Notes: a model not told the origin generated them from the letters alone. A DNA stretch of 56,313 nt from Prorocentrum cordatum (GCA_963575745.1 CAUYUJ010000097.1:62001-118313), one strand, 5' to 3'; counted from the first letter of the stretch, positions 6,707 through 45,938 are shown. Numbers and translations: made by a program.

Positions 6707-6830
6707 TTACTTCGACCAGACCTTCGTGGCGCAGGCCCGCGACGCGCGCCTGCGCGCACGCGTGCCCGCGAGGAGGAGGAGGAGGAGGAGGAAGAGGAAG
6801 AGGAGAAGGAAGAGGAGGGCGGCAGGGCGA
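6545..6830. repeat. (GTC)n microsatellites with a duplicated ~43-bp spacer, then (GAG)n
   Basis: Two GTC runs, each followed by ttacttcgaccagaccttcRtggcgcaggcccgcgacgcgcgc. Confidence 0.85.
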
Positions 6831-6899
6831 GGTCGTGGGCGAGGACGAGGGCGGCAGGAGGAGGAGGGGGAGGACCAGGAGGCAGACGGCTGGGGGCGT

Positions 6900-14769: not shown

Positions 14770-14838
14770 CCCACCCAAGAATGTTCTAAGAACATTTTGC
14801 GGTTTCAGCGAGATGTTCTTAGAACATTTCTGGTTGGG
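14770..14838. repeat. Foldback built from ATGTTCTWAGAACAT palindromes
   Basis: cccacccaagaatgttctaagaacat ... atgttcttagaacatttctggttggg, with a third palindrome at about 14866-14880. Confidence 0.65.
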
Positions 14839-15013
14839 TCTGTCTTGGTTTAACACATCGGGTTTATGTTCTAAGAACATGGCACATTTGGGGGGTCTAA
14901 GGACATTTCGTGGTAGGACTAGGAATGTTGGACGGTCGGTCCCTGCTCAAAGGCGACACTGAGATCCGGGCCGCGTTTTCGCCGGGTTTCGGGCCCCCAG
15001 GCCCTCACAGATC

Positions 15014-15207
15014 TCGGGGGCGGAAAAGAGGGGGGTGATGACTAGGGGGCGGTGGATATCATGGCGTGGGCCATGATATTTCCCCAGATCGCATGGCGCC
15101 TCTTCTTGTTTCATTACGTCCCTGGCCCCCCCGCTGGGCCGCGCACATGCCGCCGGTCATGATTTGCACCCCCCCCTCTTGGACACCCCCCTCTTGGCCG
15201 CTCCCGA
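15014..15207. mobile_element. MITE with 5-bp AGATC target duplication
   Basis: agatc|tcgggggcggaaaagaggggggtg ... cacccccctcttggccgctcccga|agatc. Confidence 0.7.
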
Positions 15208-15324
15208 AGATCGATGCGGCTCGAGAAATGAAGCAGAGAGACAGGGTCTATAGGGCTCCAGTGGCGATCTCTTTCGCGATGCGTGGATTTGTTTCTGTAA
15301 CGCCAGATCTGAGGGACCGCCCCT

Positions 15325-15398
15325 CCCTCTCCTCTCCTCTCCTCTCCTCTCCTCTCCTCTCCTCTCCTCTCCTCTCCTCTCCTCTCCTCTCCTCTCTC
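15325..15398. repeat. (CTCCT)n microsatellite
   Basis: Direct reading. Confidence 0.9.
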
Positions 15399-16862
15399 TG
15401 CAAACGCGTCGGTGTCGGTCGTGGTCGCCATGAACTCGTGGATCGGCCCCGCGAATCGGCGACGGCCGGCATGGAAGACGACCAAGATTGGCGTGGACAA
15501 GTTCCCGCGATTGGAGGGTTTCTCCGAAAGACTTAGGCGACCCGTCCTCCTCCTCCTACTCCTCCTCCCTCCTCTTCCTCCTCCTCCTCCTCCTCCTCCT
15601 CCTCCTCCTCCATCTCCTCCTCCCCTTCCCCCTCCCCCTCCTCCCCATCCACCTCTTTTGCAACCTTTGCAATGCGGCCCAATGTCGCTCCCGCGACGTG
15701 GCCGACGCCTCGGCGGCTTGTGCCGCGGAGGTTGCGGGCTTTGCCGCTCAGGTGGCGCACAGCACGGCTGCCGCGCCCGCACACGGAAGGGACACCCAGG
15801 CCTCACGAGGCCAAACCAGCCGCCAGCGGCCGAGGCAACGCGCCGGGGCCCGAAGGCCCGCGAAAAGGTCCAGAAAAGAAGGCAGGAGGAACGAGGAGCA
15901 GAGGGAGGACGCCTCCAGGGCTCTCAAGAGGGGAGGGGGCTCCAGCAGGAGCCGAAACCGGCGCGGCAAACGCGAAGCCCCGACCCCCGAGGAGAGAGAA
16001 GGAGAAGGTTGCGTGGCCAGAGGAGGAGAGGGGGACGTCAAAGCTCCCAGGCCAGGGGAGCAGTGACGGGGGGCCTGGAGCCTGGATGACGGCCTCATCC
16101 CTGACACCGCCACCCTCTACTGGCCTGCAGCAGCTCTCCGCGCCCAGCAGGTCGTCGAGCCGCCGTCTCCGCTCGGGGGGTGGCGGTATCTCGGGTTAGG
16201 CGCCTTCTGATGAGTGCACCCCAACCCCGCGAAGCGGGGGAAGGGAGGAAAAAAGGAAACAAGGCGGAGGATAGGCACCAGGACCGAAGGAGAGGGAGGA
16301 AGGAGGAGTAGTTTCACTGGAACGTCGGGGGCGGACTGGGTCCTGGGTCGTGGCTGGCCTCGCCCGCTCACCGCGGGGCGGTTCACGCGAGGAGCTCGAC
16401 CTCGTCCCCCTCCCCTGGAGGGGGTGTCCACGAAGATGCGGCCGACCATCCTGGTGTCGCTCTCTCCGCGCGACTAGTAGGCAACCTCTGGCTTCTCCCT
16501 GTGGCCTGCGTCAAGGCCTGCGCTATCGGTTGTTGTGGCGCTTCTGGTTGCGCCCACTGGACCAGCGGCTGCTCGTCCAGTATGGGCCGATCCAGGCACG
16601 TCGCCGTTAGTGCCAGCGGCCCCGCGACGGCTTGCCATCTCTACTACAGCTCGGTGCGCTGGCGCTGCGTAGAGCGGGGGCCCATTCGTCTTCTCCTCCA
16701 GGGAGACGGGTGGCTTGTCGTAATGTTGTGGTCGCCGTAGTGGTCGAGGTCGCCGAGGTGGTCGAGGGGCTGCTGTCGTTGTTGGCTGCCGCCGCTGGTC
16801 GAGTGCTGCTGTCGTTGTTGTTGGTCGTGTTGTAGGGGCGTTGATTGCACTGGTAAGGTCTC

Positions 16863-17160
16863 CATGCGCCGACTTCAGTGGGGTTCTTGGCTGTCCCACC
16901 TCGTCCCGCTATGGCTAGGGGTCACAGTGCCCTCGGTGGGGGCGAACCCCAGACCTTGTGCTTGCTTGGTCTGCGTGCTAACAAGTGGGTCGTTGGGTGG
17001 TCGCGTTGTTGCGGGTCGTGTTGTGTTCGTTGTGGGCGCACTTGTAAGGCCTGCATGCACCGACTTCAAGTGGGGTTCGTGTCTGTCCCACCTCGTCCCG
17101 CTATGGTTAGGGGTCGCAGTGCCCTCGGTGGGGGCGAACCCCAGGCCTTGTGCTTGCTTT
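16863..17160. repeat. Two ~105-bp direct repeats in the LINE 3' region
   Basis: 16863-16968 and 17054-17159 are highly similar. Confidence 0.85.
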
Positions 17161-17899
17161 TGCTGTCGGTAGGGGTCGTCTCGGCTGTCCTTTGCTCCGC
17201 CGCTAGGGCGCTCGGGTAAGCTCCAACTCCGCTATGGGAATGGTGGGGGCGGCGAGCTAGGGCGGACCGCGGGGGCGCGGGTAGTGGCCGTCCTACCCCC
17301 CTCCCCTGCCCCTCACCATCCCCCTTGGCAGGCGCGGGCAGTACTCGTCCTGCCCCCCCGCCATTCGAGCCCGTCTCGACGTTTGATCCTTGCCTCACCA
17401 GGACAGCCTCGACATGCACGCGTGCTGGTTGTGTGTTGTTCGTTTTCATTACCATTGTCCGTGTCGGACGTTGCGTTTGTTAAGCAGCTTAAACGGTTGT
17501 GCAATGGTATTTGTGGAGGTAATTGGGGCTGTGTGGGTTGCATTCGTCGTCTGTGTCGGTCGAGACGTTGCTCGTCTTGTATGTGTCGTGCGGTGGCTTC
17601 GTCGGTGCGGTCTGCGCTCTTTGTGTCGTAGCCGCCCTTCTCGTCTTCATGCGTGCCGTTGAGGAACGTCTCCTCAATATTGTCAAATTCGCTCCAATGG
17701 AGAGCATGTGGTAGCCTTCCTGCTGGTGGATTCCAACAATTCGGCGGCTCCTTGTCAACGTGGCTCGTCGCCTGGTCGTGCTGGTCGGCGTGCTGGCTAT
17801 CATGCTGGCCTTCGTGCAAATCGCGGTGGCGGACGCAGTGGGAAACGCTGTCACCCCGCTGCTGGTCGTTGTCGTGGATGTCACGGATACCGTGCCGTC

Positions 17900-18705
17900 T
17901 CATGCCTTGGTCGCCGTGGCGCCCAGAGTCGTTGCCTTCACGCGCCAGGATGTATGGGTCGAGGTGTGCTGCGTCATGGGTGGTCAGTGGGTCAGGCGGA
18001 GTGGTTGCTGGTGTTATACCCCATCGCGCAATCATCAATATGTCCAGGGATTATGAGATGTTGGTCATCATGTTGGTGCGTTCGCCGTCGTAGTCGATGC
18101 TGTTGTTCGTCGTCATGACCCTAGTTCGAGTTCCGTTGGGGCCTGTCGCAGTGGTAATGCTGGCGGTGAGGTGACGGCTAATGTGCTGCAGCTGAGGCGT
18201 CCTCGAGGCCGTAATTCCAGGTGGGTTGGTCGGTTATGCAGTTGGATGGGCGACAAGCATAGGGGCCTGGAAGGTCTGCGAGGCGCTGGGTATCTCGGTG
18301 ATGTCCCTGAGGTCGTCGTTCATGGCCGAGATGAGGTCGTAGTCCTTCTGGCCCATGCTTGGTGTGCCCCACGGGTGGTTTATGCTTCTGCGGGATGCGA
18401 TATTCATCTCGTCGGGGTCGTAGTTCTCGACGAACCAGGTGGCTGTAGGGATGTAGGCGTAGATACCAGCGATGGTGCCCCCTGTCATATTCGCCTTTAG
18501 TATGTTGGTCTCGTCGTTAGTGAGTCGTGGCCGAGGTGGAGGCTGATGTGGATGTAATCGAGCCTTCGCAAGTTGGAGATGCAATGGGTGGTCATGTGTT
18601 GGAAGAGGTCGTTGTCTATGCGTGCGATCGCCTGCCGTGGCGCAGTATTTGGAAAAAGGGGGAGGCGGCCTGGCTGGACTGGCGCGAAGTGGAGCATATA
18701 CCCTT
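17900..18705 (-). pseudogene. Degenerate cytosine-methyltransferase-like C-terminal domain of the LINE polyprotein
   Basis: Across frameshifts it reads YMLHFA... / GGTIAGIYAYIPTATW / RRSINHPWG / MLVAHP / LDPY. These are collinear with the LHLFSG, GPPCETW, RSxxxPWG and EHP blocks I recall from dinoflagellate Dnmt-carrying LINEs. The catalytic residues are substituted. Confidence 0.5.
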
Positions 18706-18899
18706 GGTTGCTGTGGGGAGGTCTCAAGAATGGGAAGTGGCGTGACGTCGCCCTTGTGGGCTGGTTGTGCTCCGTAGGCTTGAGGTCGTCCGTCCCGTCG
18801 GTTCTTCGTAGCTACTTCCTTGTGGTGGTCGTTGTTGAAGGCGATGTGCTGGTCGGTCAGGGGCGCGCCGCACGTCGTGCGCCATGCGCGCCAAGATGT

Positions 18900-21000
18900 C
18901 CGGCACTGTCCTGGTGCTTTCAGGTGTTTGACGAGGCGTGAGTAGGAGTGAAATCCCGTCTGGCAGCATCTGCATGCCGTCCCTGTGGCCCATTGTCGGG
19001 GGTCGTCGTGGTGCTTGTGGTCTCTGCCCATGTGGATTGCCACCCCCTGCTGCGCGGCTGTGACGCTGGCGCGTTCGCGCATGTAGCAGATGTACTCTCT
19101 GGTGGGCGCCTCTGTCGTGGATCTGGCGGTCGCTGCTGCCGGCTGGTCGTATCCGATGTCGCGGTTTGCTCGGTCGGTTTCGGCGTCTTCTTGTGCGTGT
19201 CTGAGGAAGGCGTTAGCGGCAGTGCCCACTGCTGAGTTGATCTCCTTATGTCCCTCCCTCGCCCATTCGACGACGCGGTGATCGACGTGGCTGGCGGTAG
19301 TCCAACGTTCGGGCTTGAAGTAGGTTCGGGGGGAGTTGAAGTCGTTCTTGAGCAACTGCACCCACCCCCGTTTGACTGTGGCGATGTTGTCGAGGAGTCG
19401 CAGCAGAACACGTTGTGCGTGGTTTAGAAGTCGTGGGAAGTACTTGAATCGTGCGATTGACTGGTGGGTAGTGAAGTCGGGAACGCGAGTGATTGCCGTG
19501 ACTTTCTTGGTTGCGATGTTGGTGGAGGGGGGTCTTCGGTAGTCCCATGGCGACGCGGTGCGGCCCTACGTACTTGACCGCCATAAACTTCGCGTCCGTC
19601 GTCGCCATGCCGTTCCATATGTGGTGGTTGAGCGAGGGCCGAAGTGGGCAAGGCGTGGACGTACTTGATCTTCGCTTTGGCAGGGAGTCATTTCAAACTT
19701 AGAATTTGCCGCTCCAGGGATGTAACCGCTGTGGCGGATCGGTTGTCTCGAAGTCGGGTCCCGGGCCCCATGGCTGCACCAAACGTAATGGTCGTTTCCA
19801 GAGCTTTGTGTTGGTCGGTAATCTTGAGCTGGACGTCGAGGTCGGGAAGGTCGAGGGTGTTGATTCGGTCGGCTGCAAGTCGCTGCCTTCCTTTCCTGGC
19901 GTTGGCGCCGTAGAAGTTGAGGATGGCCCTGGTCTTCTCGGGGTGCGGCTTGAGACCATAGGTGAGGGCGGTCCGGCGTAGGTTAGCGGCTGGCTGCTAT
20001 AGTGGTGGCCTCGACCAGGTCTGTTGCGTCTGCTGTGGGTGTAAGTCTAGTTAGGTTGTCAACGTACGAGAGGTGCCGCAATGCGTCTCCGTCGTGGCGT
20101 TCTTTGGCGAATAAAGGGTGGGGGCAAGGAGGGATTGGATGTCCGTTGTTACTGCATTCCTGCGTCCTGGCGTCGTGGCCGATCGGATTCAGGAGCAGAG
20201 CGAAGTGCCCGTTGAAGGCGACGTCGGAGAAGGGGGCGCCCGGTCGGGTTCCAGTAGTCGGCGCTTGATGCTGGATAGCCTCGCGAGCTGTCATCCAGTT
20301 GGATGCGTGGTGGTCTGAGATCATCATCTCGCAGAGGTGGGCGTCGTCGATCTTGCTCGTGCTACTGTCTGGGCGCTGCGCGTTCTGCGTGGGGGCTGGC
20401 TGAAGCCAAGCCGGGATGTCGATCGCGTTGATGAGGTCGTCGAGCTCCGAGGGCGCGGTGGGCAGCTGCATGGTGCATTTCCTGGTCGCGGAGTGGAAGG
20501 CCCCACGCGGGTCCAAGAAGATGATGGATCCCGGTGTTCCCTTTTGCCTGCAGTCCGCCACGAAGGCCATGATAACGCGGGTGGCGGAGTCCGTGGCCAT
20601 GCGCGGTCTGGCCCCACACTGGGTGGCGTTGAGCAGAGAAGGGAGCAAGTAGTTGACCTTGGACCTTAGAAAGGACAAGTGCGTCTTGCCAACGACGTTG
20701 TTCAGTAATCTGCCTCTGTAGGAGGACTGCTTGTCGAGGGCCCCCCCCCCCCCCCTGGTACAAGTGCGTCGAAAAACCGCCCTTCGCTGCTAGTGGCTCC
20801 GTTGACTGCACCTGCGTCTTGACCAGGATGGGGCGCAGTAAGCGTGCCATAAAGCAGGAAGTAGCTGTGGCCATTTCGTCTGTTATGCCATCTGGCCCCC
20901 CCCGTCGTCCTGGTCGCGCTCCAACAAGTGTCGTCGTGAGCTGTCCAATTGTCGTGATGTTGTGAATGGCTGGGTCAGGCTTGTCGTGGTTGGTGCGTTG
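18900..21000 (-). pseudogene. LINE reverse transcriptase plus Zn finger, frameshifted
   Basis: AKGG, IIFLDPRGAFHS, GTRPGAPFSDVAFN, YVDN (20055-20066, decayed YxDD), KYVG, CRCCQTGFHSYSRLVKHL (about 18920-18976). Confidence 0.85.
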
Positions 21001-21696
21001 GTATCATGGTCGGCGACGCCGTCGGCTGTGGTCTCCTTAGCGTGCTCGATTGATCCGTAGAACCTGAGAGCGCGGTCGGCGATGTCGGTCTTGCCGATGA
21101 GAATCTCTCCTTCAGGCGAGAGGCGCACGAGCGGAGTTAGCGGCTTCTTGGGCGGTTTCCCAGCGAAGGCGAGCAGCTTGTGGGTGTTGTTGATGATGGA
21201 GGTGTTCATGTCGCCGGCTGCGTTGTCGAGGAAGTCGTCTCTGTCCTGCTCGGCCCATATCCAGAGGACCTGGTTCGTCGAGGCCAAAATGTGGCAGGCC
21301 TGGCTGTAGACGTTCTGGCATGCTGGATATTGTAGATGTGTTGCGGCCCTACTCTAAGAGCAGATGGTGGCGGAAGTCGCCAAGGAGACGTAGCTCGGCA
21401 GGTCCAAAAGGCAATGCCCGCCGCTGGGATGTGGTAACAGGGCGTCGTTGGCTAGGATGCTGGCGAAGTATCGCGGCCTTCGTCTTGCAGTCTTCGAAGA
21501 GGGCCCGCTGCTCTTGACTATCCTGGTGGTCTTTATGGCGGCGCGCCGTGCCCGTAGCAGAGTAAATGACCTGGTCGTAATGTACGGTTTGCGTGGCGTG
21601 CGTCGGTCGCGTCGAAATACCTGCTGAGCGGTGGTGGTAATGTCTTCCGCAATGATGGCGCGGTGGTCGTTGACGGTGGCGCCCCAATTGCGTCGG

Positions 21697-22345
21697 TCAT
21701 ATCGTCGACTTTTTTTTTCTGCAGCTGGCGTCTTTCAGCTTCGATTTGTCGAGCTTTGGAGTAGTGGTAGATCTGGTGGTGTTTATATGGTACTGCATCG
21801 TGGTGCGAACTGGGGGGTGGTCGTCCTTCTTCTCGATGGTGTCGTCGCTGTCGATGCCAATCATCGTGGAACAGTCCGCGATGCAGCCCAGCATGTCGGT
21901 CTCGATGGCGGTATAGTTGATGCGGTGGGGGCCATTGTTGGAAAGCCGAGTGTGGTGGTCGCCTCCTCCGCTCTGGAACGTGCTAACTGCTGATAAGTTG
22001 TGCGAGCAGGAACTCGTGGAATCGCGTTCCGTCGTTGTCTTCTGGCTGGTGTGGGCCAACAGATCCTATAGCTGGTTAGCGGTTCCGTCCGAGCGTTGGC
22101 GTCGACCATCACCATCGATATGCTATACTTACTAGCAAGGTTGGACAGTGTGGTCCAGAAGAAATCCTTGTCGCTGGGATCTGCTGGCCGAGCGTGGGGA
22201 GCATGGCCGACGCAGATGGTCTGCTGGAACCCGGTAGCCGAGAGTTTTTGACCAATAGTAGCGTGGGGCTCTTATGGATGATGACGAAGTGGCCAGGTCG
22301 GAAATAAAATGGGGTGCCGCCGCTCCAGCCGCAGGGTTTTAATGT
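21697..22345 (-). pseudogene. APE-type endonuclease, C-terminal part
   Basis: CVGHAPH, MVDANAR, HRINY and DDHPPV motifs across frameshifts. Confidence 0.75.
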
Positions 22346-22615
22346 CGGCCCGTCGTCGCGGGCTGAGGGGGGCGGGCCGTCGTCGCCTTCGTCGGTCGCC
22401 CCCTCGCGCTCGGGCTCGCGCGCCGCGGGCCATCGCTCGGCGCCGCGGCCGCGGCGGGCGCCCCGCCTGGACGCCTCGTGAAGGCGAATCAGCCTGGCAT
22501 CGGCGCCAGAGGCAACAACGGGCGCAGGCGCGCACGTCGGTCGGCGCCCTCTCTGCCGCGGGGGCGCTCGCAGAGCACCGCGGCGCCCAGCAGACCATAG
22601 ACTGACCATTCGACA

Positions 22616-24933
22616 ATGGCGACAAGCTCAAACGCAACTGGCCCCCCAATAGGTGCAAGGCCGTCTCCCTGGAGGTCACAAGTACATCAGATCGCCTACC
22701 ACAAGCGCGACTCGAGCGGCCTCGGCCAGCAGCACCAGCAGCACAGTGACCAGCAGTGCGACAACCAGAAGCCCAACAACCAGAAGCACAACGGGACCCA
22801 GCAGCACGGGCGCCAGCAGCACCGCCACCAGCAGAGCAGCAACCAACAGCACAACACCAGCTGGAAGCAAGGATCGGGATCGAGAGCGGGATCATCGCCG
22901 AGAAAGGCTACGGGAAGGGCACCGTCCAGATCACCAGCCATATCAGATGACTTCCAGTACACCCAGAAGCAGCTCGAGATCATCGACAGCGCGGTGCCTG
23001 CCACTAAAGACGGAATTGATCAACGCGAGAGTTTCTCGAACCCACCCATCGAGACTGACGTCGAGAAGTTATGGGCCATGACGAATGGGCGCGCAGGGCG
23101 ATTGGCAGACCAGGCCCACGGGGCCAGGGCAGCTCGAGTCGACGACGCCAAGATCATCAACGAGCTGCCCATTACCACGGCCATGATCATGCCCACCCTC
23201 TCGCCCGAGGAGCGCGCCGCCCACTGCCGCTCCAGCATCGCGAGCGCCCTGAAGCGGAGAAGCGCGATGCGTGAAGACACCGCCAAGCTTCAGAATGAGT
23301 CCGACGTCATAGAAGGCGACATTATGATCGCGAAGACGCTCTTGCAGGAGACGAAGGACCAGCACGGAACATCGGCCTTGCCCGACCCAGGGGCGCGCCC
23401 GATTAGCATGGAGACCGCGAAGACCAAGGACGAGAGGGGCGCGACAGGAATACCGCACGGGGCAAGGCGCCACACCCGCGAGCACGTGAACCAAAACCTC
23501 GCCACCAATACCGACTCCAACGCAACGGCCAAACCACCCACAGCCGCTCAACACCAATGACGACGCCCAAGAACTTCGCAAGGTCATACCCGACCTCGCC
23601 AAGAAGGTCGACCACCAGCAGCAGCACACGGGCATCCACCAGCACCACCTCGCCTGCCTCAGCCAAGAGCAGCGGGCCAGCCAGCAGAAGGACAGGCAGC
23701 AGGCCGAGCGCCGCGAGGAGATTAAGGTAATGCACGACAGGATGGAAGTCTTGCGCAGACTACAAGAAGCACAGCATGCAGCTGGCACAGAACGCCATGC
23801 GATCGGAATTTCAACAGCGACAGCAACGACTCCAGGAGCAGCTGCAAGCCGACAGGGCTCTAACGGAAAGGAAGCTCGACACCGAAGAGAGCAAGCCAGA
23901 GAAAACTCAAGCGGCGGCAGAGCAGGGACAGCACCTGAGGCTCGCCACCTCCAAGGACTACGAGATAATACACAAGGGGAACAACGACCGCTGGGAGGCA
24001 CGACAGCAGGAGATGGACACCGCCAGGAACGCGCTCATCACGCAGGAGGCCCAGCACCAGCAGGAGCACAACAACGCACAGCAGCGGCTGCGACAAGCAT
24101 AACACCACGCGCGACAGGGGGAGCTGGCGAGTGCGTACAACTCGCTCATAGAGAACGAACAAAGGTGCCAGCAGCAGGAGGCCAACCTCAAGCATGAGCA
24201 GCAGCAACACCTAGCAGCAGTCCAAATCTTGGCCATCTCCGAGCAAGACGTTTTCAAACACGCCAAAGGACGACTACCCGAATAATACGGATAAGTACAG
24301 GCACTACGGCAACACGCGCTCAGAGCAAAACGCGAGTACAACCAAGAGAGCGCACAGCTACTACGCACATAACAGCATATGCTGATTCAGCTTGTGATCA
24401 ACATCCAGACCAACGAGGAGAAGCGCCTGAAGGAACGGGGGGAGCTCCAGGCCGAGCTACGCCAGGCCGAGCTTCGAGGAGACGCAATCGACATCGACTT
24501 TTTGAGGGAGCTCGACACCAGGATGAGTGAGCGCGACGAGGAGGAAACCTTACGGCAAGCCGTGGCGGATTCGGAGCAGCAGCGCATCGACCGCGAGATA
24601 GAGGGCGCAATACGTTCAATCCTACCTGGACCGCACGGCCAACCTCCACAAAACATCGACACCTACATCGAGCAGCTCAGGACCATGGGGCAGGACAACG
24701 GCACCGCCAACGCCAGCACGGCCGACCCGGAAGCATGGAGCTTGCAGGACCTCGGCTTCGCCCCAAGGCCCCCGACCGCTCCGCCCCCCTCCCGCTCAAG
24801 CCGTTTCCGCCGACTCCCACCGACGCACCGCAGTGTCTCGTCCCCCTTCAACGACCGATGCGACGAAGGCGCCGATCGCCGACGATGGATACGACGCCAA
24901 ACCCGACGACAGCAGACGCGCTCCCATCCCTGA
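22616..24933 (+). pseudogene. LINE ORF1-like Gln/Glu-rich coiled-coil protein, fragmented
   Basis: ATG 22616 follows a GC-rich 5'UTR. Fragments 22616-23560, 23776-24102 and 24379-24933 have heptad-like QQE/EQR tracts. Confidence 0.55.
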
Positions 24934-26829
24934 CCTTGCCCACGACCCAGATCTCGAAGGACGCGTTTACGACTTCATTGCGCCCAGGCAAAAGATCACC
25001 AGCACCCCAATCCCGACTAAGCAGCCAGCACCACCCATTCGAGAAAGCCCATCCCCCCCCGTTCGAGCCCTATCCGCCCCACCTGAAGCGAGCACTGGAG
25101 CTGAAGACGCTCATAGGCCTGGCCCAACAAACACCGTGCTCATCGACCTCAGCGCGGACGAACACGATGAGCCCACCACCCCAAAGAAGCACCTGGTCGG
25201 CAGCATCACGCCCACACAACCGATTATCCCAATTGAGCCACCGCTACGCTTTCACACGGGCACTCCAGAGAGAGCGCGTTCAGCGCCGCCTACTCGAACA
25301 CGATCAGCCCTGAGAAGCAGCAACCGACGGGGCCGCCCAGCCAGGAAGGTCCGCATCCACGACGCAGGTGGCGGTTTCGTAGACCCAGCCGATCGAGTTG
25401 CAGCATGTGCAGATGGTGACGACGAAGGTTCGGACACCACCTTACGCCCAGCAAAATAGTTACGACAGGCCCTAATGGGGGCGCGCTGGCCCATCAGAGC
25501 AGCCCAACGACACCAGTGCAGGAGGCCCTTGGTTGGCCCAAGTCGACCATGCGACTGAACCAGCCCGCGGTCAGCAATGCCCACTCGGCACACCGTGCAG
25601 CGACCAGCCTGACGACCCCTGCGGTGCAGGCGACTTGCAGCAGCGTTACGTCATCACCTCCACCTTCGCTTCCACTAAGGAAGCCCGACTCTGCCAGCTC
25701 CGACAGGCTGATACCCGCTTTGGGGATAGCGGGCCAGCCTAATGAACGACTTAAGCAGCAGCCCACCGCTTCGACGCCTCATTCAAACAATAGCTAAAAG
25801 CCCAAAATAACACCAGCCCTTCCTCATTTCAATATCTCAGCTGCCAGACAGGTCAGACGCCCGCCAAGTGGGAGATCTACTTGCGCGGAGAGCGCGACCC
25901 GCCAACAACGACGGCCAGACTCGGGAGCATCCCTCCAGCTAGTCAACACGACTCCGTGCTTGCTGCAGGTGGTCCACCAACCCGCACCAGGAAGGTACCA
26001 TTCAAGACGCCGTCACCACCGAGGGCGAAACCAGGTTCACCTACGGACGCAGAATCATAGTCTAGTGTTACTCCGTCTAGGCCTGACCGACCTAGCCCGA
26101 AGTCACGGCAGAAGCGACTAGCCATGTTGGCTCGAAGGCGCAACCACTGCACGACGAATGCATCCACGAAGCGGCCGACGCAAGATACGGCAGCCACTGC
26201 TCCTCTGTTCCCATGGCCGCCTTCGACAACATCGAGGCGACCTTTCTGGACGACCACAACCTCCAGGACGAGCACGACGGCACCAGTCCCGACGATGACT
26301 CTTCCACGAAGAGCAATGACCATGGTCTCAACGACACGATCGCCCGACGACGCTTTGCACGAGTCCAAAGACGTCTTTGCCAGCATCGAATACCTACCTA
26401 CTTGTCAACGTCCAATCGTTTCGACGCCTTACAGGACTCTGACGACAACCATCAAGCAAAACCTTCGCCGGCAGTCATGGAAGCAACCCCTGATGCCGGA
26501 GTACTTTACCATCGCCGCGAACGAATCCCCAAGCCATCAACTACCAGTCCTACACCACCACCACGCCCTCAAACAGCAACCCTCTACCCCTTTCGCATCA
26601 AAGGGTCCAAGAAACTATCCAAACCAACCCCTGACGACCAGCCCTCTCTACCAGATGAGCTACCACCAGGGCACGATCTGCACTTCAATCCTAAAGCTCC
26701 CATCAAAATAACCATCAAGCACAGCACTCCACCCAGCCTGACCTTCGATTTCGACCAACGAGCGGTGATCGAAACCGCGGACTACGTTCTCCGACACTTC
26801 CCACCTCGGCCTCTACTACAACAGCACCG

Positions 26830-27075
26830 ACTCCACCTATTCACCGATGGCTCCAAGAACCCGAAGAAGGCTGCACTACGGTTGCGACAGACAACTCACT
26901 GGGGGCCTTCAACCTTGCCATTCGCCAAGCCTTCACCGACCATGACGTCGACCTCGTCAAGACCCTCTGCATATTTTACGACATCGTGCAGGACCGACTC
27001 GAGCTTCGGCATGTCCACGCTCACGAGCACAACCCTTGGAACGAACTAGCCGACGCAGCCGCCAACCACGCCCGC
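26830..27075 (+). pseudogene. RNase H domain, internally deleted and frameshifted
   Basis: LFTDGS (26837-26854) and HVHAHEHNPWNELADAAA (27010-27063). Confidence 0.8.
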
Positions 27076-27289
27076 CATCAACCAGTTGATCATCCCCGGC
27101 CCGTGTGGAGCGCTACCATGGACGGAGCCAACCAGAGGGACTGGGAGTTCCTCATCAATGCCGACGACAACACCAAAAGAGCATACCCGACGCTCATGCA
27201 CGACCGCCCCCACGCACCTACAATTCCGACGACAGCCACCCCGAGACATATCCACCGAGACCCTGACATGAAGAAGCGAGAGGTAGAGG

Positions 27290-27550
27290 TAGCCATCACC
27301 TTCGCCACCTACAACATTCAGACTGGACGAGAACCGAGACCTGGTGCAAGTAAGAGGCGCGAAGATATATCCCGTCTAAAAAAGGTCATGGCCGCCATTT
27401 ACGACGACGACATCCACATCATCGGCATCCAGGAGGCCCGCACTGTCTTCGGCACCAGGGATTCGACCGACGCCGCATGCGTTGGACCAACAACTACGAC
27501 GTCATCGCCAGCGGCCACGACAACTTCAAATTGGGATGCGAATTGCATGT
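27290..27550 (+). pseudogene. APE-type endonuclease, N-terminal part
   Basis: TFATYNIQ, IIGIQEAR and LGCELHV, ending exactly at the right TSD. Confidence 0.8.
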
Positions 27551-27859
27551 CCCATCCACCTCCTCCTCCTCCTCCTCCTCCTCCTCCTCCTCCTCCTCCT
27601 CCTGTCGCCCACGGTCCCAGGGGAGACCGTCCACCCGCGACGTCATGGTCATGGTCATTGCGTTCCTTCCCTCGAGGAGCCCAGGTACGTGGCTGCCCTG
27701 GCGCTGCTCGTCTGCGGCCTGCGGGGCGCCCCGTGCTGCCCCGTCGGAGCTCGGCGGGGCACGGAACTCTCCCGAGAGCCGGGTTTCTTGCGGTTGCTTC
27801 ACGCTGGTCGCTTCCGCCCGCTTTCGAGCCCTGGGGCCTTCCCAGGTCGACCCGAGGCC

Positions 27860-27982
27860 AGCAGAAATGCGGCAGAAAGATGGGGTTTGGGGCTCGGGGC
27901 AATGCAGCAGACATCCAGCAGAAATGCAGCAGAAACCCAGCAGACATCCAGCGGAAATGCAGCAGACATGCAGCAGAAAGAT
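27860..27982. repeat. 11-bp minisatellite (GCAGAAATGCA-like)
   Basis: Direct reading. Confidence 0.7.
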
Positions 27983-28099
27983 GCGCGTGATTCCCCGCGA
28001 TGTTGCAGTTTTCGCCGGACCCTCCGTTGTTGGGTTTGCGTTTTGAAATCTAGAGCACTGTGGTCGCGTCCTCCTTCCCGCCCCCTTCCCGCCTTCCCC

Positions 28100-28440
28100 C
28101 GACCTCGCCATCCCTGTGGGGCTGCGATCTGCGAAACCGTCGCCGCTTTCGAGGGCTGATGGGCGGGCTAGCACATTGGAGCCCCATTCGGATTCAGATT
28201 TGACCTCGGCATCCCTGGGGGGCTGCGATCTGCGAAACTGTCGGCACTTGGGGCCAGCGCAGTGCGGCCCCATTCGGATTCTGATTCGACCTCGCCATCC
28301 CTGGGGTGCTGCGATCTGCGAAACGGTCGCCACTTTCGAGGGCTGCTTTGGGGCCCAGCATAGTGGGGGTCTTACGCAGATTATGATTCGACCCCTCCAT
28401 CCATGAGGGGGGAAACGATCCGCGAAACTGTCGGCACTGG
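28100..28440 (+). repeat. Four ~90-100-bp tandem units
   Basis: Core gacctcgccatccct..ggggctgcgatctgcgaaac.gtcg at about 28100, 28202, 28288 and 28390. The same core occurs reverse-complemented at 48345-48660. Confidence 0.75.
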
Positions 28441-29489
28441 CATACTTCGAGACATCATTTCTATCCTTCCCCTGACCGTATTTTGTCGTCACTCTGGTGC
28501 TGCTGCCATGTCCCCTTGCTGCTGGACCGCTTACGTTTCAAGCTCCCTTTCCGCCTTCTCCTCTTAGTCCTTGCCCCGCTTTCCCCTCGACCCATGGAAC
28601 TACCAGTCACCTCCACCAAGCCCGTGTCCACTGATCGGTGTCCTGCGGGCCGCGCACCTTGCGAGCCTCCCACATACCGTTCGCAGAACGTGGATCCTCT
28701 TGCCACGTTACCCCACCTATACAGTCTGCCCGGTGGGTCCATATCCAGGGTCATCTTCCCAACGTCGGATTTCAGGCGGGGGCAGCGCCAGTTTGCGCGG
28801 GGAGCCGCCGCGGGGGCGTCCGCGAGCGAGACGAGAGGGGGAGAGAGAGGCCCTGCAAGCGGCCGGCTTGGGGAGCATGCGGCATGGCAGGCGGTGGCGG
28901 GGCGGAGGCCGAGGCGAGAGGGGGGCGCGGCGCAGGTGGTGTGCATCACATCCGCGCACGCACATGCGTTCCTCATCCGGCGATGTGGCACCGCCGTCGC
29001 GACAGAACAGCCTGGCATCGCTCGGGCGTGTGCGTGTTCCCCGGCGATGACCCTCGAGGAGCACATCCTGGATCCATCGAGCAAGAGAAAGCGCGCACAG
29101 AGCCGAAGAGTGCACAGGGAATGGGCGTCCGAGCGATGGCAAGACAATCAAGGGGGGCGGGGGGTGTTGGTGGGGGGGAAGGTGGTGGGGGGGTCGGCGT
29201 TCCGAAGGGGGCGAAGGAGGTGGAGGAGGAGGAGGAGTAGGAGGAGGAGGTGGAGGAGGAGGAGGAGGAGGTGGAGGAGGAGGAGGAGGTGGTGGAGGTG
29301 GTGGAGGAGGAGGGGGAGGAGGAGGGGGAGGAGGAGGAGGCGCCCAGCCGCTCGGAAGGCCCCCATTCGGCCCTCCAAGAAGGCCCCCCGGGGGGTCCAG
29401 GAGGGGCCGTCCCGAGGAGGGGGCCGAGCCCTTCTGCTGGGCCCGCTCGCCCTGCCCCCCCGGCCAAGCCCGGTGCCCTGGCCCCTCCA

Positions 29490-32432: not shown

Positions 32433-33689
32433 GCCATCTGGGCCGTCTTGGGGCGCTCTTGGCTTCAGGCTGCTGGGCCTGCCACATTTTTGGCGTCTCC
32501 TTGGAGCGCTCCTGGAGCGCTCCAGAGGCCTCCAGGGCCGCGCCCAGGAAGTCCGGCATCTCTGGCCCCCACCCTGCCGGGGAGCTGCCGGGGTACTTTC
32601 CGCCCGGGGACTCCTAGGGGCCGCCCTGCGCGCGCGAACAAGAAATATTGTTTACCTGTTACCGGAGATCTTAGCACGCCCTGGCCCGTTGGGCCGGCGA
32701 ATTTCTCGTCGAAGCTCTCCCTGTAGGGGGACACGCCCGACTTAGAACTTGTTATTCATCCCGAGCCGGTGTCCGAAGGTCCCGAGGCCCGATGAGGGAG
32801 GGCCCTCGGAGGCTACACGCTGCCAAGCACGTTCCGCCCAGGTGGCTGTCACGATGGGAAGAGGCTCGGGAGGTGGCCCTGGCGAGGCACGTCGGCGGTA
32901 TACACAGCCGACGCGCACGGTAAGGATGAGTGACAGTCCCAATGGTTCGGCCCAGCTTTAGCCAGTCCTTGGCTCAGACAGCCTCAACTCGGGCATCCAA
33001 GACTTTCGAGGGGCTTGCATGCCTACCGCGCATCCCTTCCGCGACCAACTGCGAACACTGCTCGCCCCTGCGGGCCCATCCTTCAGGAACCCGGCATGCA
33101 GGGGTGCGGCTCGCAGGTGCTTGCTTGAAGGACCACCATGAACTCGGGAGGGGCTCAAGTTCTGGGGCCACTCCGAAGGTCTAGGCCGCGGAGCCTTTTC
33201 GCGGCCGAGGCTCGCCGTGGCCAGAAAAGCCACATTGTTCCTTGTTCCGCGTTCTTTACGGTATCACGATGACTGTCCCGCGCACCTTCCCTGAGATCCG
33301 ACGTTGCGAAACAATGTAGCAGCGCGAAACATCACGACAGGAGCCCCAGACCCCGTCTTCCTGCGGCACGTTCCGTGCCGGATCTATCGGCGATGGCCCC
33401 AGGGCACGGGCACTGGGCGAAGGCGGCGCGAAAAGTTTGCAACGCCCAGATCTCGGGCCTCGTCGCACGCGTCGGCTGTGGTTAGCCGACGGTTCGGCGT
33501 GGAGGAGCAGGAGGAGGAGCAGGAGGAGGAGGAGGAGGAGGAGGCTTCAGCACGTGTGTTAGCCCGAGCGGTTCGGGTCCGCCGACGGCGCGCAGCCGGC
33601 GCCGGCCCTCGCTGCGCCGCCTGCGTCGTATTTTGAAGGGCCTCGGTGGACTGACACACGTTGGCGCTAACACACTCAGCCACGCGCAG

Positions 33690-33810: not shown

Positions 33811-35179
33811 TCCACCCCCTTATGCTCGCCGCCAACACACGTTCCTAGGATCATCGAGGCAGGGCCAGGCCCGCCTCGATCCGATATCGATCCGGCCCCG
33901 ACGTCGACGTCGGTGGCCTCGCTTCGATGTCCATCGGTGCGATGCGACTTCGAGGGGCGATCGGTTCGATTCCCGATCGATCCGATCGATCCCCCGTCGA
34001 TCCGATCCTCGATGTGGGCGCCTCCCGCGCGAGAGGCGGCCGCGCGCTCCGCTACGGCCCCGGCCCGGTCGCGGACCTGGCCCGCGCGCTGCCGCTCGCG
34101 GGCGGCCTCGCGCCCGCCGCGCTGCGCGGCGCGGTGGAGCGGCGCGCCGCGGCGCTTTCCTCCGACGGCAGGGAAAGTGCTAAAACGACGCGAAGATCGG
34201 GACAGAATCGGATCGGGATAACTCGAAATCTCTGAGGATCGGCGGGTTTGGAGGATGTCTTGGGCGCCGCGGCCGCTCCAGAGCGTTCCGGAACGCTCTG
34301 AGAGCGCTCCGGAACGCTCTGGAGCGATTTATCCCGATCCTAGCCCTGTTTTCAGTGCCCGGGCGAGGCTCAAGTCGGTATCGTTTCACCGCCACCCGTC
34401 CCCATCGAGGGCCCCACCATCTCAGCACCCGAGTGGGAGACATGCCCCTCGAAGCCCGAGAGGAACAGCTTGTAGCCCCATCACTGGGGGGTACATCGGC
34501 CAGGGGGGCCCAGGCCACGCCCATAGGGAGAGGGGTCGGTTGCGCGATGTTCAGTCGAGGCCCAAGGGGGGGCGCATCGACCCCCAAGCGCCCGTTGATC
34601 ACCGATAGGGGCCCGATAGGCCCACCCCGCCCAGGAACGTGCGGAGTCGCCATCGGGGGGGCCCATCGCCGATCTAGCGGCGAAGTATCGGCCGTTTGCA
34701 GGTCGACGCTTCCTCCCCTGAGCGGGTCCCCTCCTGACGCTGGTCCTCATCGAGAGTTGTTCTGGCTTCGGGTTGCGCACAGAGCCCCCCGAGGTGGTCC
34801 CGGCTGGCCTCAACGGGCCCCTCGAGTAGCCTGGGGCGGCCTCACCACCATGGCGGCGCCCCTGGGGCGCTCCGTTGAGATGAGACCGCCCCACACTACT
34901 CGAGGTGCCTGTTGGGGCCAATTGGGACTACCTGGGGGGGGGGAGGACGTCTGCGCGCACCCCGAAGCGTTGGAGGGTTGAGGTTTGCCCGGAATGGTCG
35001 AAGTAGTTATTGAAAGAGTGGTGACGAAGGCCGACAGCAGTTTTTGTCCGTTCTGAACAGGGCTCGCTGGCGTTGCTGTGGACGTTTGCCCACTTGAGAC
35101 GGAGGGTCGCCTGCCAAACATCGGCCGCTGACGGCGGGGCATCGTGCCCATGTTTGCCGGTGCCCATCCGATGCTTGGG

Positions 35180-35206
35180 CATTGTCTCAAGACGTTTTGG
35201 CTCCAG
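35180..35206 (+). other. Tandem relict spliced leaders in the 5'UTR (also at 37641-37667)
   Basis: CATTGTCTCAAG then ACGTTTTGGCTCCAG, compared with the relict unit CCATTTTGGCTCAAG. Confidence 0.55.
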
Positions 35207-35287
35207 CTGGGCCTTCGCAATCCGAAACACACCCGCGCATTCTGCGCACGTCCTACAAAACTGCCGGTCGGCGCGCCTGTCTCGCAG

Positions 35288-36673
35288 ATGGCCCGACTTT
35301 TGGGGATCGCCAGCCTCGTCGGGGCACGCGGCGCCACCGGCCTGAGCGCGGCCCCACAGCTCACCGCTTCCAGCATGATGCAATTTGGAGCAGCGGTGGA
35401 CAAGAGCAGCGCCTCGCAGCAGGCAGCGGCGGCGTTCGCGGAGCGCCGAACCACTACATACATCGACCTGACCTCACAAACCGTGTGGAAAAATTCTGGT
35501 TACCACTCCACCTTCAACCAAAACGGCACTATGACGCTGGGAACGGAATCGAACACGTGGCCCATGTGGGCCCCAAAGACATCCGCCCTCAATCTCCCAG
35601 ACCCATCGTGTACTTGGACCTTGGAGGTTGGTTTCCACATCACCAGCTATTCGGAATTTAAATATATGTCGATTGGTTTCGGCGACGATGCTGCCATCAA
35701 AGACAAGACGTGGCATGGAGGCAATTACATTGTCTTTCAAGAGTGGAGTCAACAGGAGGGCACAGCTAGGGACGGTTTACGGTCTGAGGGCAGCGAGACC
35801 AATTGGAATCAGATGAGCCTCGGCGAATTCTTTGGAAATCCGAGCTCCAAAAAATACATCCGAATATCTTACCGCGCCGACAGAAAGATCGATTTCCAGA
35901 TCTTGTCTGCGGACAGATCTCATGTGCTTTTCAGCAGAGTCTATTGGGTCCCCGATAATGTGGGCTGGCCAGAGAACGTACTTGATGAGGACCGGTCTCT
36001 TGTGCAGTTTACGGTGGGGCGAGGGGTGACCACGTGGTCGGAACTAAGCGTAGAGCACAGCGGCACTTGCCCGAGCCCGCCAACGCCAGCTCCGACGCCA
36101 GCCGCGACTTCGGAGCCAACGCCACCTCCAGCGGGTGGGGCAGGTGCTGGAGCTTCTGCCGTTGGCGACCCTCACTTGCAAAACATCCATGGCGAGCGGT
36201 TCGACCTGATGAAGGCAGGCAAGCATGTTCTGTTAAATATCCCCCGTGGAACGGGTGCTGAGAGCTCCTTGCTTCGTGTGCAGGCCGACGCGCGTCGATT
36301 GGGTGGACATTGCGCGGACATATATTTCCAGGAGCTCAACGTTACTGGGTCTTGGGCATATGCCGAGCAAGCCGGAGGGTATCACTACAGCGTATCGCAA
36401 CGCGACATCAAGACTCCAGGGTGGGCCACTATTGGCAAGGTCGAGCTGAAAGTCGTTCGTGGACATACGGACAGTGGTCTGCAGTACTTGAATATGCACG
36501 TGAAGCATTTGGGTCGAGCGGGATTCGCAGTCGGAGGTCTTCTGGGCGAGGACGACCACGACGACGTGAGCACCGTTCCTGACGATTGCGCTCAGCATTT
36601 GTCCCTAGCAGCGGGGACGCGCAGCGATGGGAGCCCAGCTGTGGCTTCCGTTGCGGTGGCATCCCTTGCATGA
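35288..36673 (+). CDS. Intronless, probably secreted 461-aa protein: beta-rich N-domain, Pro/Thr linker, GDPH (VWD/ITIH-C-like) domain
   Basis: Part of ORF 35144..36673. Signal-peptide-like MARLLGIASLVGA, then PSPPTPAPTP linker, GDPH at 36164-36175 and VGGLLGEDDH. Confidence 0.8.
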   Translation: MARLLGIASLVGARGATGLSAAPQLTASSMMQFGAAVDKSSASQQAAAAFAERRTTTYIDLTSQTVWKNSGYHSTFNQNGTMTLGTESNTWPMWAPKTSALNLPDPSCTWTLEVGFHITSYSEFKYMSIGFGDDAAIKDKTWHGGNYIVFQEWSQQEGTARDGLRSEGSETNWNQMSLGEFFGNPSSKKYIRISYRADRKIDFQILSADRSHVLFSRVYWVPDNVGWPENVLDEDRSLVQFTVGRGVTTWSELSVEHSGTCPSPPTPAPTPAATSEPTPPPAGGAGAGASAVGDPHLQNIHGERFDLMKAGKHVLLNIPRGTGAESSLLRVQADARRLGGHCADIYFQELNVTGSWAYAEQAGGYHYSVSQRDIKTPGWATIGKVELKVVRGHTDSGLQYLNMHVKHLGRAGFAVGGLLGEDDHDDVSTVPDDCAQHLSLAAGTRSDGSPAVASVAVASLA

Positions 36674-37748
36674 TGGAGCCCGTTTGATTGGTTTAGACAG
36701 CTTGTTCCGGCCTCGGCCGCCAGCTGGGCGTGCCACTGTCCATTTCTGCGTTCAGGAAAAAATGCCCGTGCCCAGTTCGAGGGGCATGCCAATTGTTGCC
36801 GCTGTTTCCTATATTTGTTCACGCCTCCACGGGGGCCCTCGCCACCACGGCCAGGCCCCCCTCCAGATGATGGGCAGAAGCCCTTCCAGGAGAGCCGATG
36901 TTTGAGGGCAGACCCCCTCGCACCCCAGTGGGGGACATGCCCCTAGAAGCCCGACATCGGCCAGGGGGGCCCAGGCCACGCCCATAGGGAGAGGGGTCGG
37001 TTGCGCGATGTTCAGTCGAGGCCCAAGGGGGGGCGCATCGACCCCCAAGCGCCCGTTGATCACCGATAGGGGCCCGATAGGCCCACCCCGCCCAGGAACG
37101 TGCGGAGTCGCCATCGGGGGGGCCCATCGCCGATCTAGCGGCGATGTATCGGCCGTTTGCAGGTCGACGCTTCCTCCCCTGAGCGGGTCCCCTCCTGACG
37201 CTGGCCCTCATCGAGAGTTGTTCTGGCTTCGGGTTGCGCACGGAGCCCCCCGAGGTGGTCCCGGCTGGCCTCAACGGGCCCCTCGAGTAGCCTGGGGCGG
37301 CCTCACCACCATGGCGGCGCCCCTTGGGCGCTCCGTTGAGATGAGACCGCCCCACACTACTCGAGGTGCCTGTTGGGGCCAATTGGGACTACCTGGGGGG
37401 GGGGAGGACGTCTGCGCGCACCCCGAAGCGTTGGAGGGTTGAGGTTTGCCCGGAATGGTCGAAGTAGTTATTGAAAGAGTGGTGACGAAGGCCGACAGCA
37501 GTTTTTGTCCGTTCTGAACAGGGCTCGCTGGCGTTGCTGTGGACGTTTGCCCACTTGAGACGGAGGGTCGCCTGCCAAACATCGGCCGCTGACGGCGGGG
37601 CATCGTGCCCATGTTTGCCGGTGCCCATCCGATGCTTGGGCATTGTCTCAAGACGTTTTGGCTCCAGCTGGGCCTTCGCAATCCGAAACACACCCGCGCA
37701 TTCTGCGCACGTCCTACAAAACTGCCGGTCGGCGCGCCTGTCTCGCAG

Positions 37749-38118
37749 ATGGTCCGACTTTTGGGGATCGCCAGCCTCGTCGGGGCACGCGGCGCCACCG
37801 GCCTGAGCGCGGCCCCACAGCTCACCGCTTCCAGCATGATGCAATTTGGAGCAGCGGTGGACAAGAGCAGCGCCTCGCAGCAGGCAGCGGCGGCGTTCGC
37901 GGAGCGCCGAACCACTACATACATCGACCTGACCTCACAAACCGTGTGGAAAAATTCTGGTTACCACTCCACCTTCAACCAAAACGGCACTATGACGCTG
38001 GGAACGGAATCGAACACGTGGCCCATGTGGGCCCCAAAGACATCCGCCCTCAATCTCCCAGACCCATCGTGTACTTGGACCTTGGAGGTTGGTTTCCACA
38101 TCACCAGCTATTCGGAAT
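37749..38118 (+). pseudogene. Second copy of the GDPH-domain gene retaining only its 5' part (3' end lost)
   Basis: Near-identical to 35288-35657, cut off by the TIR at 38118. Confidence 0.85.
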
Positions 38119-45639: not shown

Positions 45640-45938
45640 GAAAGTGGCCATTGTCAACGACAAGGAACGAGCCTATCCGCTGGTGTGTTCATTCACTGGA
45701 GAGGTATGATGGGTACAGCCCGCTGGGGGTGTCATTACGTCTTTGCGGTTTTCCCCCAGCAGGCCCCCGACGGCAAACCCTGCTCGCCCCAGATGCTCCA
45801 CGTACACGTTCACATAGTGGAGGCCAACGTCCATGCGCCCGTGAGCGACTTTCAGCTCCACCTTACGGAACGATGGGCCGAAAGCAATCCATCTCGGAGC
45901 CTTGTCATCGGGTTGCAATGCGCTATGATGATACCCTC
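45640..45938 (-). pseudogene. C-terminal fragment of a fourth GDPH-domain gene
   Basis: KVELKVAHGR...HLGRAGFAVGGLLGE, truncated at the (CCT)n tract 45938-46206. Confidence 0.8.

Follow-up and report, generated by a model that had tools for sequence, protein, structure and literature searches.

An 11.9-kb LINE with its 5' part inverted in a Prorocentrum cordatum contig: a probable case of twin priming

Twin priming was reportedly proposed by Ostertag and Kazazian in 2001. Judging by titles and abstracts, nearly all of 40 papers that use the term, out of 106, deal with L1, the long interspersed nuclear element (LINE) of humans or other mammals. In the account of 5'-inverted L1 copies from human, chimpanzee and mouse given by Kojima (2010; PMC2912911), such copies consist of two segments, of which the 5' one is inverted and the 3' one is not, enclosed by a single target site duplication (TSD) of normal length, the TSD being 10-17 bp long, and about 70% of the insertions have microhomologies of 2-5 bp at the 5' junction. 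Here we describe a structure of this kind in a stretch of 56,313 bases from Prorocentrum cordatum (GCA_963575745.1, CAUYUJ010000097.1:62001-118313), which we call the window. Its G+C content is about 0.6, near the 59.7% tabulated for P. cordatum (PMC11453091). Two LINE relics that stand head to head in the window appear to be the two parts of one 11.9-kb element, and twin priming is probably the best explanation of how they came to be opposed.

The locus is like the twin-primed L1 copies of that account in that opposed segments lie within one TSD, an internal position of the element stands at the 5' TSD, and the two segments are adjacent in the element. The TSD is 12 bp here compared with 10-17 bp in L1, and a microhomology of 2-3 bp is possible at the 5' junction. 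Unlike the mammalian cases, the host is of dinoflagellate type, the element is not a mammalian L1, and the target is a (CCT)n tract. The inverted part also differs from that of L1: inverted L1 copies are usually 5'-truncated, whereas the inverted part here is 5.2 kb long and seems to include the leader and the first ATG.

Two opposed halves of one element

The plus-strand open reading frame (ORF) at 26695-27550 led to P0001, a partial protein of 736 aa that its source names Prorocentrum cordatum, and a HMMER search with P0001 gave 675 relatives at E <=0.001, of which the best 150 were used in comparisons. In tblastn the relatives follow one collinear path through the window with a single change of strand. 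P0002 (1,527 aa) aligns over residues 17-374 to the plus strand at 26684-27551 and over residues 376-1483 to the minus strand at 22345-19083. P0004 (440 aa), the closest among the relatives listed, aligns over residues 40-239 to the plus strand and over residues 241-439 to the minus strand at 22345-21752, and P0001 aligns over residues 86-314 to the plus strand at 26872-27551 and over residues 326-736 to the minus strand at 22190-21018. The change of strand falls within the endonuclease domain of the apurinic/apyrimidinic type (APE): residues 219-239 of P0004 map to 27489-27551 on the plus strand, inside APE, and the APE part of P0002 is divided into residues 356-374 on the plus strand and 376-488 on the minus strand. 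The alignments of P0002 and P0004 show that one APE domain runs on from the plus half into the minus half. The motifs follow the same order, with YNIQTGRE (27307-27333), GIQEAR (27424-27441) and LGCELHV (27531-27551) on the plus strand and TLKPCGW (22345-22325), CVGHAPH (22214-22194), DANAR (22106-22089) and DDHPPV (21828-21808) on the minus strand. An earlier note on this DNA had read the APE domain as running on from LGCELHV into the minus half with CVGHAPH, and both this continuity and the coordinates given there are borne out, with TLKPCGW the first of the motifs beyond the break.

It is the window copy that departs from the family. A single blastp high-scoring segment pair crosses the position of the break (P0002 residues 360-395) in 117 of the best 150 of the 675 relatives, and all 114 relatives in this set that reach both sides of it are collinear, none being broken there. 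This indicates that the family is collinear and that the copy in the window is rearranged, contrary to the possibility raised in the earlier note that intact copies share its orientation.

The two halves also resemble one another. P0004 is 62-76% identical to the plus half and 59-64% identical to the minus half, and the ranking of the relatives by similarity is the same for both. The sense-strand composition is alike in the plus strand at 22637-27550 and the minus strand at 22348-16501 (A 0.26-0.27, C 0.34-0.35, T 0.12-0.16), compared with A 0.16-0.17 and T 0.18-0.24 in the flanks, and the strand skews reverse near 22 kb. Contigs about 90% identical to both halves are present in a sequencing run from the organism (X1), where the family is multicopy. 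Decay is similar on the two sides: the plus half has at least 2 frame changes over 0.87 kb, the minus half at least 6-8 over 3.3 kb. In-frame stop codons are present, and motif C of the reverse transcriptase (RT) reads YVDN where the family has FVDD, so that a catalytic Asp is lost. By these features the copy is old and dead. The idea that the halves might come from different families, also considered in the earlier note, does not agree with these comparisons, in which the same relatives match both halves with like identity and like composition. We take the two halves to belong to one family and to one insertion.

The ends of the structure support this. In the whole window the 12-mer CCCATCCACCTC has just two exact copies, 15644-15655 and 27551-27562, and these stand at the two ends, where the earlier note had placed a 12-bp TSD. 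In the window, to which all chance expectations and shuffles for the 12-mer refer unless a tract is named, the expected number of exact matches is 0.02 and none of 100 shuffles contained two or more; if one mismatch is permitted, 0.55 matches are expected, and 13 of 100 shuffles contained two or more. Both copies lie inside one (CCT)n tract, in keeping with the (CCT)n-rich target that had been proposed. Given the base composition of both CCT tracts, a match of the 12-mer at fixed positions, with its two A residues, has p ~4.5e-6, and when the left tract was shuffled in triplet units a 12-nt terminal match with 3 nt of slack arose in 89 of 200,000 shuffles. The 12-mer is the longest A-containing string common to both tracts and sits at the very end of the left one. 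The two copies enclose 11,895 bp (15656-27550), and when this insert is excised in silico together with one copy of the TSD, a single continuous tract remains that is 96% pyrimidine. The whole structure is thus enclosed by one TSD of ordinary length, as in twin-primed copies. We also considered that the (CCT)n tract might be the element's own 3' tail. This was rejected, as a TSD copy lies between the tract and the body of the element and the tract resumes past the other end.

Breakpoints and the origin of the inversion

At the outer junction (27550/27551) the interior of the APE domain stands directly against the TSD, and the 5' end of the element appears to lie inside the structure. This is the layout that the earlier note had described, and it is found here with LGCELHV running to 27551 and the leader and ATG at 22349-22618. 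The inner junction is placed within about 13 nt (22346-22358): the minus half loses its homology to the relatives at 22345-22348, and an X1 contig from a related copy, which aligns over 22359-22591 with 20 unaligned letters on its left, agrees with this. Between the two alignments one residue (Leu) of each relative is left over, between residues 374 and 376 of P0002 and residues 239 and 241 of P0004. Twenty joins of the two halves were made in silico, and the four that preserve the spacing of the relatives use only bases that are present, so that no element base is missing and the inverted segment directly neighbours the non-inverted one along the element, as in twin-primed copies. The TSD and the minus half begin with two or three bases in common (CC or CCC): at the place matching the CCC of the TSD the minus half has CC, in a codon that stands for Leu in the relatives and for Pro in this copy. 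At the 3' junction (15655/15656) the element sense strand ends in four A residues (15659-15656).

A 267-nt leader (22349-22615), 76% G+C, precedes the first ATG (22616) of a long A-rich plus-strand frame. The earlier note had placed the 5' untranslated region (UTR) at the internal junction; a G+C-rich leader and the first ATG are indeed there, which bears the claim out in part, and the leader is a putative 5'UTR that may include the true 5' end.

Together, the collinear family, the flush halves, the exact TSD and the L1-like layout favour the twin priming that the earlier note had proposed, and we consider it probable as the explanation of the locus. The order of events and the priming, which we infer from this structure, would be as follows. 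One RNA of a dinoflagellate-type retrotransposon without long terminal repeats (LTRs) would have been inserted into a (CCT)n microsatellite in a single event, the target strands having been nicked 12 bp apart to give rise to the TSD. One 3'-OH would have primed at the 3' end of the RNA and produced the 6.7-kb non-inverted part, now on the minus strand at 22348-15656. The other 3'-OH would be the end of the TSD, which is GGG on the element sense strand, and may have annealed within the APE coding region, where this GGG could pair with the CC(C) that the RNA has at the breakpoint and so start an antisense copy at 27550. This second complementary DNA (cDNA) would have run toward the 5' end of the RNA, giving the 5.2-kb inverted part that is now on the plus strand at 22349-27550, while the first cDNA would have extended to the position of the second primer. 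If it ended there, no base would have been lost. The two cDNA ends would then have been joined at about 22346-22358, and the copy would have decayed later.

Several observations weigh against this explanation. The microhomology at the outer junction depends on a progenitor with CC(C) at the place where the relatives have Leu and this copy Pro, and the inverted part may stop short of the family's true 5' end. Unlike in L1, there is no complementarity between the 3' end of the element and the priming end, no poly(A) beyond the four A residues and no T-rich nick site. Of three sequencing runs compared with the locus, only X1, which is of low coverage, holds parts of it (0.15 of the words), and the other two gave nothing usable; among the contigs listed none bridges 15655/15656, ~22349 or 27550/27551, and no empty site was found. 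One X1 contig, joining 14950 to 27875, was considered as an empty site and rejected, for it has a side of 21 letters, lies off the TSD and has very high-copy flanks. A Pfam search with the raw ORFs of the window gave 0 families (18 ORFs, E <=0.01), and the domain calls come from the relatives. The final map is, moreover, one that another route would share.

That route is an ordinary full-length insertion on the minus strand, followed by a balanced inversion of the 5' 5.2 kb through two double-strand breaks, one of them within the APE region and the other at the boundary of 5' end and TSD. It would produce the same map with nothing lost, and in an old, frameshifted copy there has been time for it. 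It would also require that one break fell by chance within about 3 nt of the boundary between element and TSD, with no flank base carried inside and no element base left beside the TSD, and the possible CCC microhomology at the TSD is unexpected under it. No inverted repeat with arms at both breakpoints was found; the nearest inverted pair, with arms of 26 nt at 22441-22466 and 27721-27746 and a complementarity of 77%, is 92 and 170 nt distant from the breakpoints. We regard a later inversion of this kind as unlikely, though it is the alternative that survives best.

The inversion may instead have been made within the same event by another template-switch route, such as a jump of the RT or a snap-back of the cDNA. 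This too would be a single event with a TSD, and the primer is not identifiable from the structure. Twin priming accounts more directly for two features, namely that the inverted part starts exactly at the end of the TSD, the site of the free target 3'-OH, and that the parts meet flush there, as they should if the first cDNA was stopped by the second primer; a template switch therefore seems to us rather improbable.

We give still less credence to an assembly artefact in which 22349-27550 was flipped and the real locus is a normal collinear element. The lack of a bridging read or contig in the low-coverage run is compatible with it, but a flip of this kind would require a repeat on either side of the block, where there is none. 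There are no runs of N, and a base-precise joint of APE, TSD and (CCT)n such as that at 27550/27551 is rarely made by an arbitrary mis-join. Finally, in a multicopy family with contigs of about 90% identity to both halves, one can conceive of two independent fragments that stand head to head through chance, or through insertions and deletions that were nested or adjacent. A single codon of a 12-kb element would then have to be the place where one fragment ends and the other begins, an exact 12-bp repeat as well as one microsatellite tract would have to be common to their outer ends, and the two would have to show equal decay and equal similarity to relatives. Target-primed reverse transcription, moreover, makes no 3'-truncated copy, and we hold this explanation to be highly improbable.

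Domain order, relatives and surroundings

By its similarity to the relatives, the element is a diverged LINE of the APE type, in which RNase H, APE, RT and a C2H2 finger follow one another in this order, probably in a single giant ORF of about 3,000 codons. The TSD is present, long direct repeats at the element ends are absent, and the tail has no more than four A residues. The features are collected in Table 1.

Table 1. Features of the insertion and of its target tract, with similar tracts elsewhere in the window
Feature	Positions	Strand	Basis or remark
Left part of target (CCT)n-like polypyrimidine tract (flank)	15537..15643	.	TRF (Tandem Repeats Finder) period 3, 15545-15655
Left TSD copy, CCCATCCACCTC, adjoining element 3' end	15644..15655	+	
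3' terminal segment of insert, sense end AAAA	15656..16500	-	A 0.12, T 0.20, differing from body
Distal A/C-rich part of non-inverted segment	16501..18104	-	Tandem duplication inside, 87% identity
ORF C-terminal region, with C2H2-like zinc finger (CRCC...HLK) at 18974-18918	18105..19565	-	tblastn
RT, decayed	19986..21000	-	FLD 20519-20490, TRPG 20249-20223, YVDN 20069-20052; tblastn with P0002, P0005
APE-RT linker, with in-frame stop	21001..21807	-	P0001 residues 498-736 on 21689-21018, 41% identity
C-terminal three quarters of APE, start of non-inverted segment	21808..22348	-	At least 3 frameshifts
Inversion (inner) junction	22346..22358	.	tblastn end of minus half and X1 contig
G+C-rich (76%) leader of inverted segment, putative 5'UTR	22349..22615	+	
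Long N-terminal ORF extension, several frames, sense strand A/C-rich and T-poor	22616..26683	+	Composition
RNase H and preceding conserved stretch	26684..27066	+	DGS 26837-26857, NELADAAAN 27040-27066; P0002 residues 17-78 and 153-347
N-terminal quarter of APE, end of inverted segment, abutting TSD	27262..27551	+	tblastn
Right TSD copy	27551..27562	+	First 1-3 bases (CCC) could equally be element (microhomology)
Right part of target (CCT)n tract	27563..27603	.	TRF 27555-27603, period 3, 16 copies
Other (CCT)n/(AGG)n tracts	224-317, 1923-2040, 6767-6880, 29195-29343, 33501-33544, 38917-39040, 41335-41455, 45932-46212, 52308-52377		

The raw ORFs have no Pfam match because the copy is too diverged and too broken; even at E <=10, a search with 7 ORFs gave only chance-level matches. 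In the relatives, Pfam RNase_H scores above its cut-off on the N-terminal side of P0002, P0007, P0008 and P0016, and PF03372 (Exo_endo_phos) scores above its cut-off in P0073 (36.2 bits), P0037 (36.6) and P0027 (26.0), while RVT_1 is found at E 1.5e-6 to 6e-3, under the Pfam gathering score (best 28.5 vs 29.6 bits). RNase_H lies at residues 65-211 and RVT_1 at 937-1203 of P0002, and in P0037 RNase_H at 848-982 is followed by APE at 1098-1313. Across 13 aligned members, each of the three enzymes has catalytic residues that are invariant or nearly so. The family alignment keeps the APE catalytic N, E, D, N and DH and the RT motifs FLD and FVDD, with D1158 and D1159 of the RT nearly invariant. 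In the C-terminal region tblastn places P0011 residues 1687-1934 on 19451-18693 and P0058 residues 1806-1938 on 18479-18105.

The profile of the 13 members matches the RT of human L1 ORF2p (8uw3_A) at E 4.9e-21 (profile 722-1030 to ORF2p 294-615) and R2 proteins more weakly, at 4e-12, and its RNase H part matches bacterial RNase HI (1goc_A) at 1.7e-9. Searches of PDB with single sequences gave 0 matches for the window peptide and one chance match for P0002. The nearest solved RT is thus by profile that of L1 ORF2p, and the position of RNase H, the short A4 tail and the landing in CCT are unlike those of L1. Human ORF2p, whose structures (8uw3_A, 9k6g_A, 8sxt_A, 8c8j_A) are the nearest solved ones, likewise has APE before RT; the family here differs by a domain of bacterial RNase HI type upstream of APE, by its long N-terminal extension and by a C2H2 finger at the C-terminus. 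Like the RNase H-bearing clades I, Tad1, ingi/L1Tc and plant/oomycete L1, it is an APE-type LINE that carries RNase H. In those clades RNase H is normally downstream of RT, whereas in the window copy and its relatives it is upstream of APE. A literature search returned no description of the domain architecture of dinoflagellate LINEs or of an RNase H-APE-RT order there. P0001, the closest of the named relatives, is ~45 APE residues short (around residues 314-326) compared with P0002, P0004 and the window copy, which is probably a gap in the gene model or a deletion in that copy.

Many of the relatives, among the best 150 of 675, are 2,000-3,500 residues long with roughly 850-1,600 residues before RNase H, and the ~1,390 codons between the first ATG and RNase H in the window copy fit this range. 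This N-terminal stretch is assigned to the element from its composition, its continuity and the X1 contigs of about 90% identity that match places in it. A protein homologue search with 22637-23560 gave 0 matches, and tblastn of the best 150 relatives gave nothing in 22349-26650 at E <=1e-3, with 6 chance-level matches at E <=1. One X1 contig, of depth 6.5, passes from 22756 straight to 24042 with two letters added in between, which points to a related copy without 1,285 bp of this region. A metagenome scan with 26872-27480 gave 61 pattern matches, of which 0 were confirmed. Rfam and tRNA scans of the locus gave nothing above threshold, and the core of the dinoflagellate spliced leader had 6 matches with 3 mismatches, none of them at a junction.

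At the other end of the element, 15656-16500 may be either a 3'UTR or transduced sequence. The tandem duplication in the 3' region (16813-16967 and 17004-17159; 87% identity, ~158 bp per copy) has an X1 word depth of 255-294, compared with <=6 elsewhere in the element, and is by this depth a separate high-copy repeat in the organism. The flanks at 14800-15253 and 27966-28400 are extremely high-copy in X1, with word depths of ~15,000 and ~115,000. In the right flank, units of 11, 22 and 33 bp are tandemly repeated at 27901-27979 and units of 86 bp at 28170-28335, and a (CCTCT)15 array (15322-15396) lies just left of the insertion.

Tracts of CCT or AGG number about a dozen in the window and make up ~3% of its non-insert DNA; those of 40-280 bp recur about every 5 kb. 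A single landing in such a tract has a chance of about 1 in 30, which is suggestive of a preference for these tracts and is not evidence of one.

Other repeats lie farther from the insertion. Two copies 2,461 bp apart (34493-35666 and 36954-38127) form a direct duplication of 1,174 bp with 99.4% identity, which appears to be recent and either segmental or tandem. A family of ~440-bp repeats, dispersed and locally tandem with 67-97% identity, is found at 31.6-32.5, 40.2-40.6, 41.8-43.0, 47.2-47.9 and 49.9-50.2 kb, and tblastn shows no relation of it to the LINE family. The strongest AT skew of the window (-0.34 to -0.52) is at 41-43 kb, and a degenerate tandem array at 53.5-55.8 kb has self-matches of 75-93% identity and a skew of G over C of 0.28-0.33.

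Implications

The mechanism is already known and its occurrence elsewhere is to be expected; what the locus adds is a single clean case in a new host and a new LINE lineage. No paper combining "twin priming" with "dinoflagellate" was returned by a literature search. We would put forward only tentatively, as a reading more doubtful than the mechanism itself, that this is the first documented twin priming outside mammalian L1, in an undescribed alveolate lineage of giant single-ORF LINEs with a bacterial-type RNase HI before APE, that the base-exact meeting of a 6.7-kb and a 5.2-kb cDNA where the internal priming took place is evidence from nature that reverse transcriptions begun at two places on one RNA go on until they collide, and that the lineage may prefer (CCT)n.

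The locus also draws attention to a LINE family with the unusual order RNase H, APE, RT. For annotation, it indicates that head-to-head and apparently divergent LINE relics in repeat-rich genomes can be single insertions; here two fragments resolve into one element of 11.9 kb. Twin priming at this locus would extend the process to a very distant LINE lineage in a dinoflagellate-type genome, and the locus suggests that mammalian L1 is not alone in the two-ended priming variant of target-primed reverse transcription.

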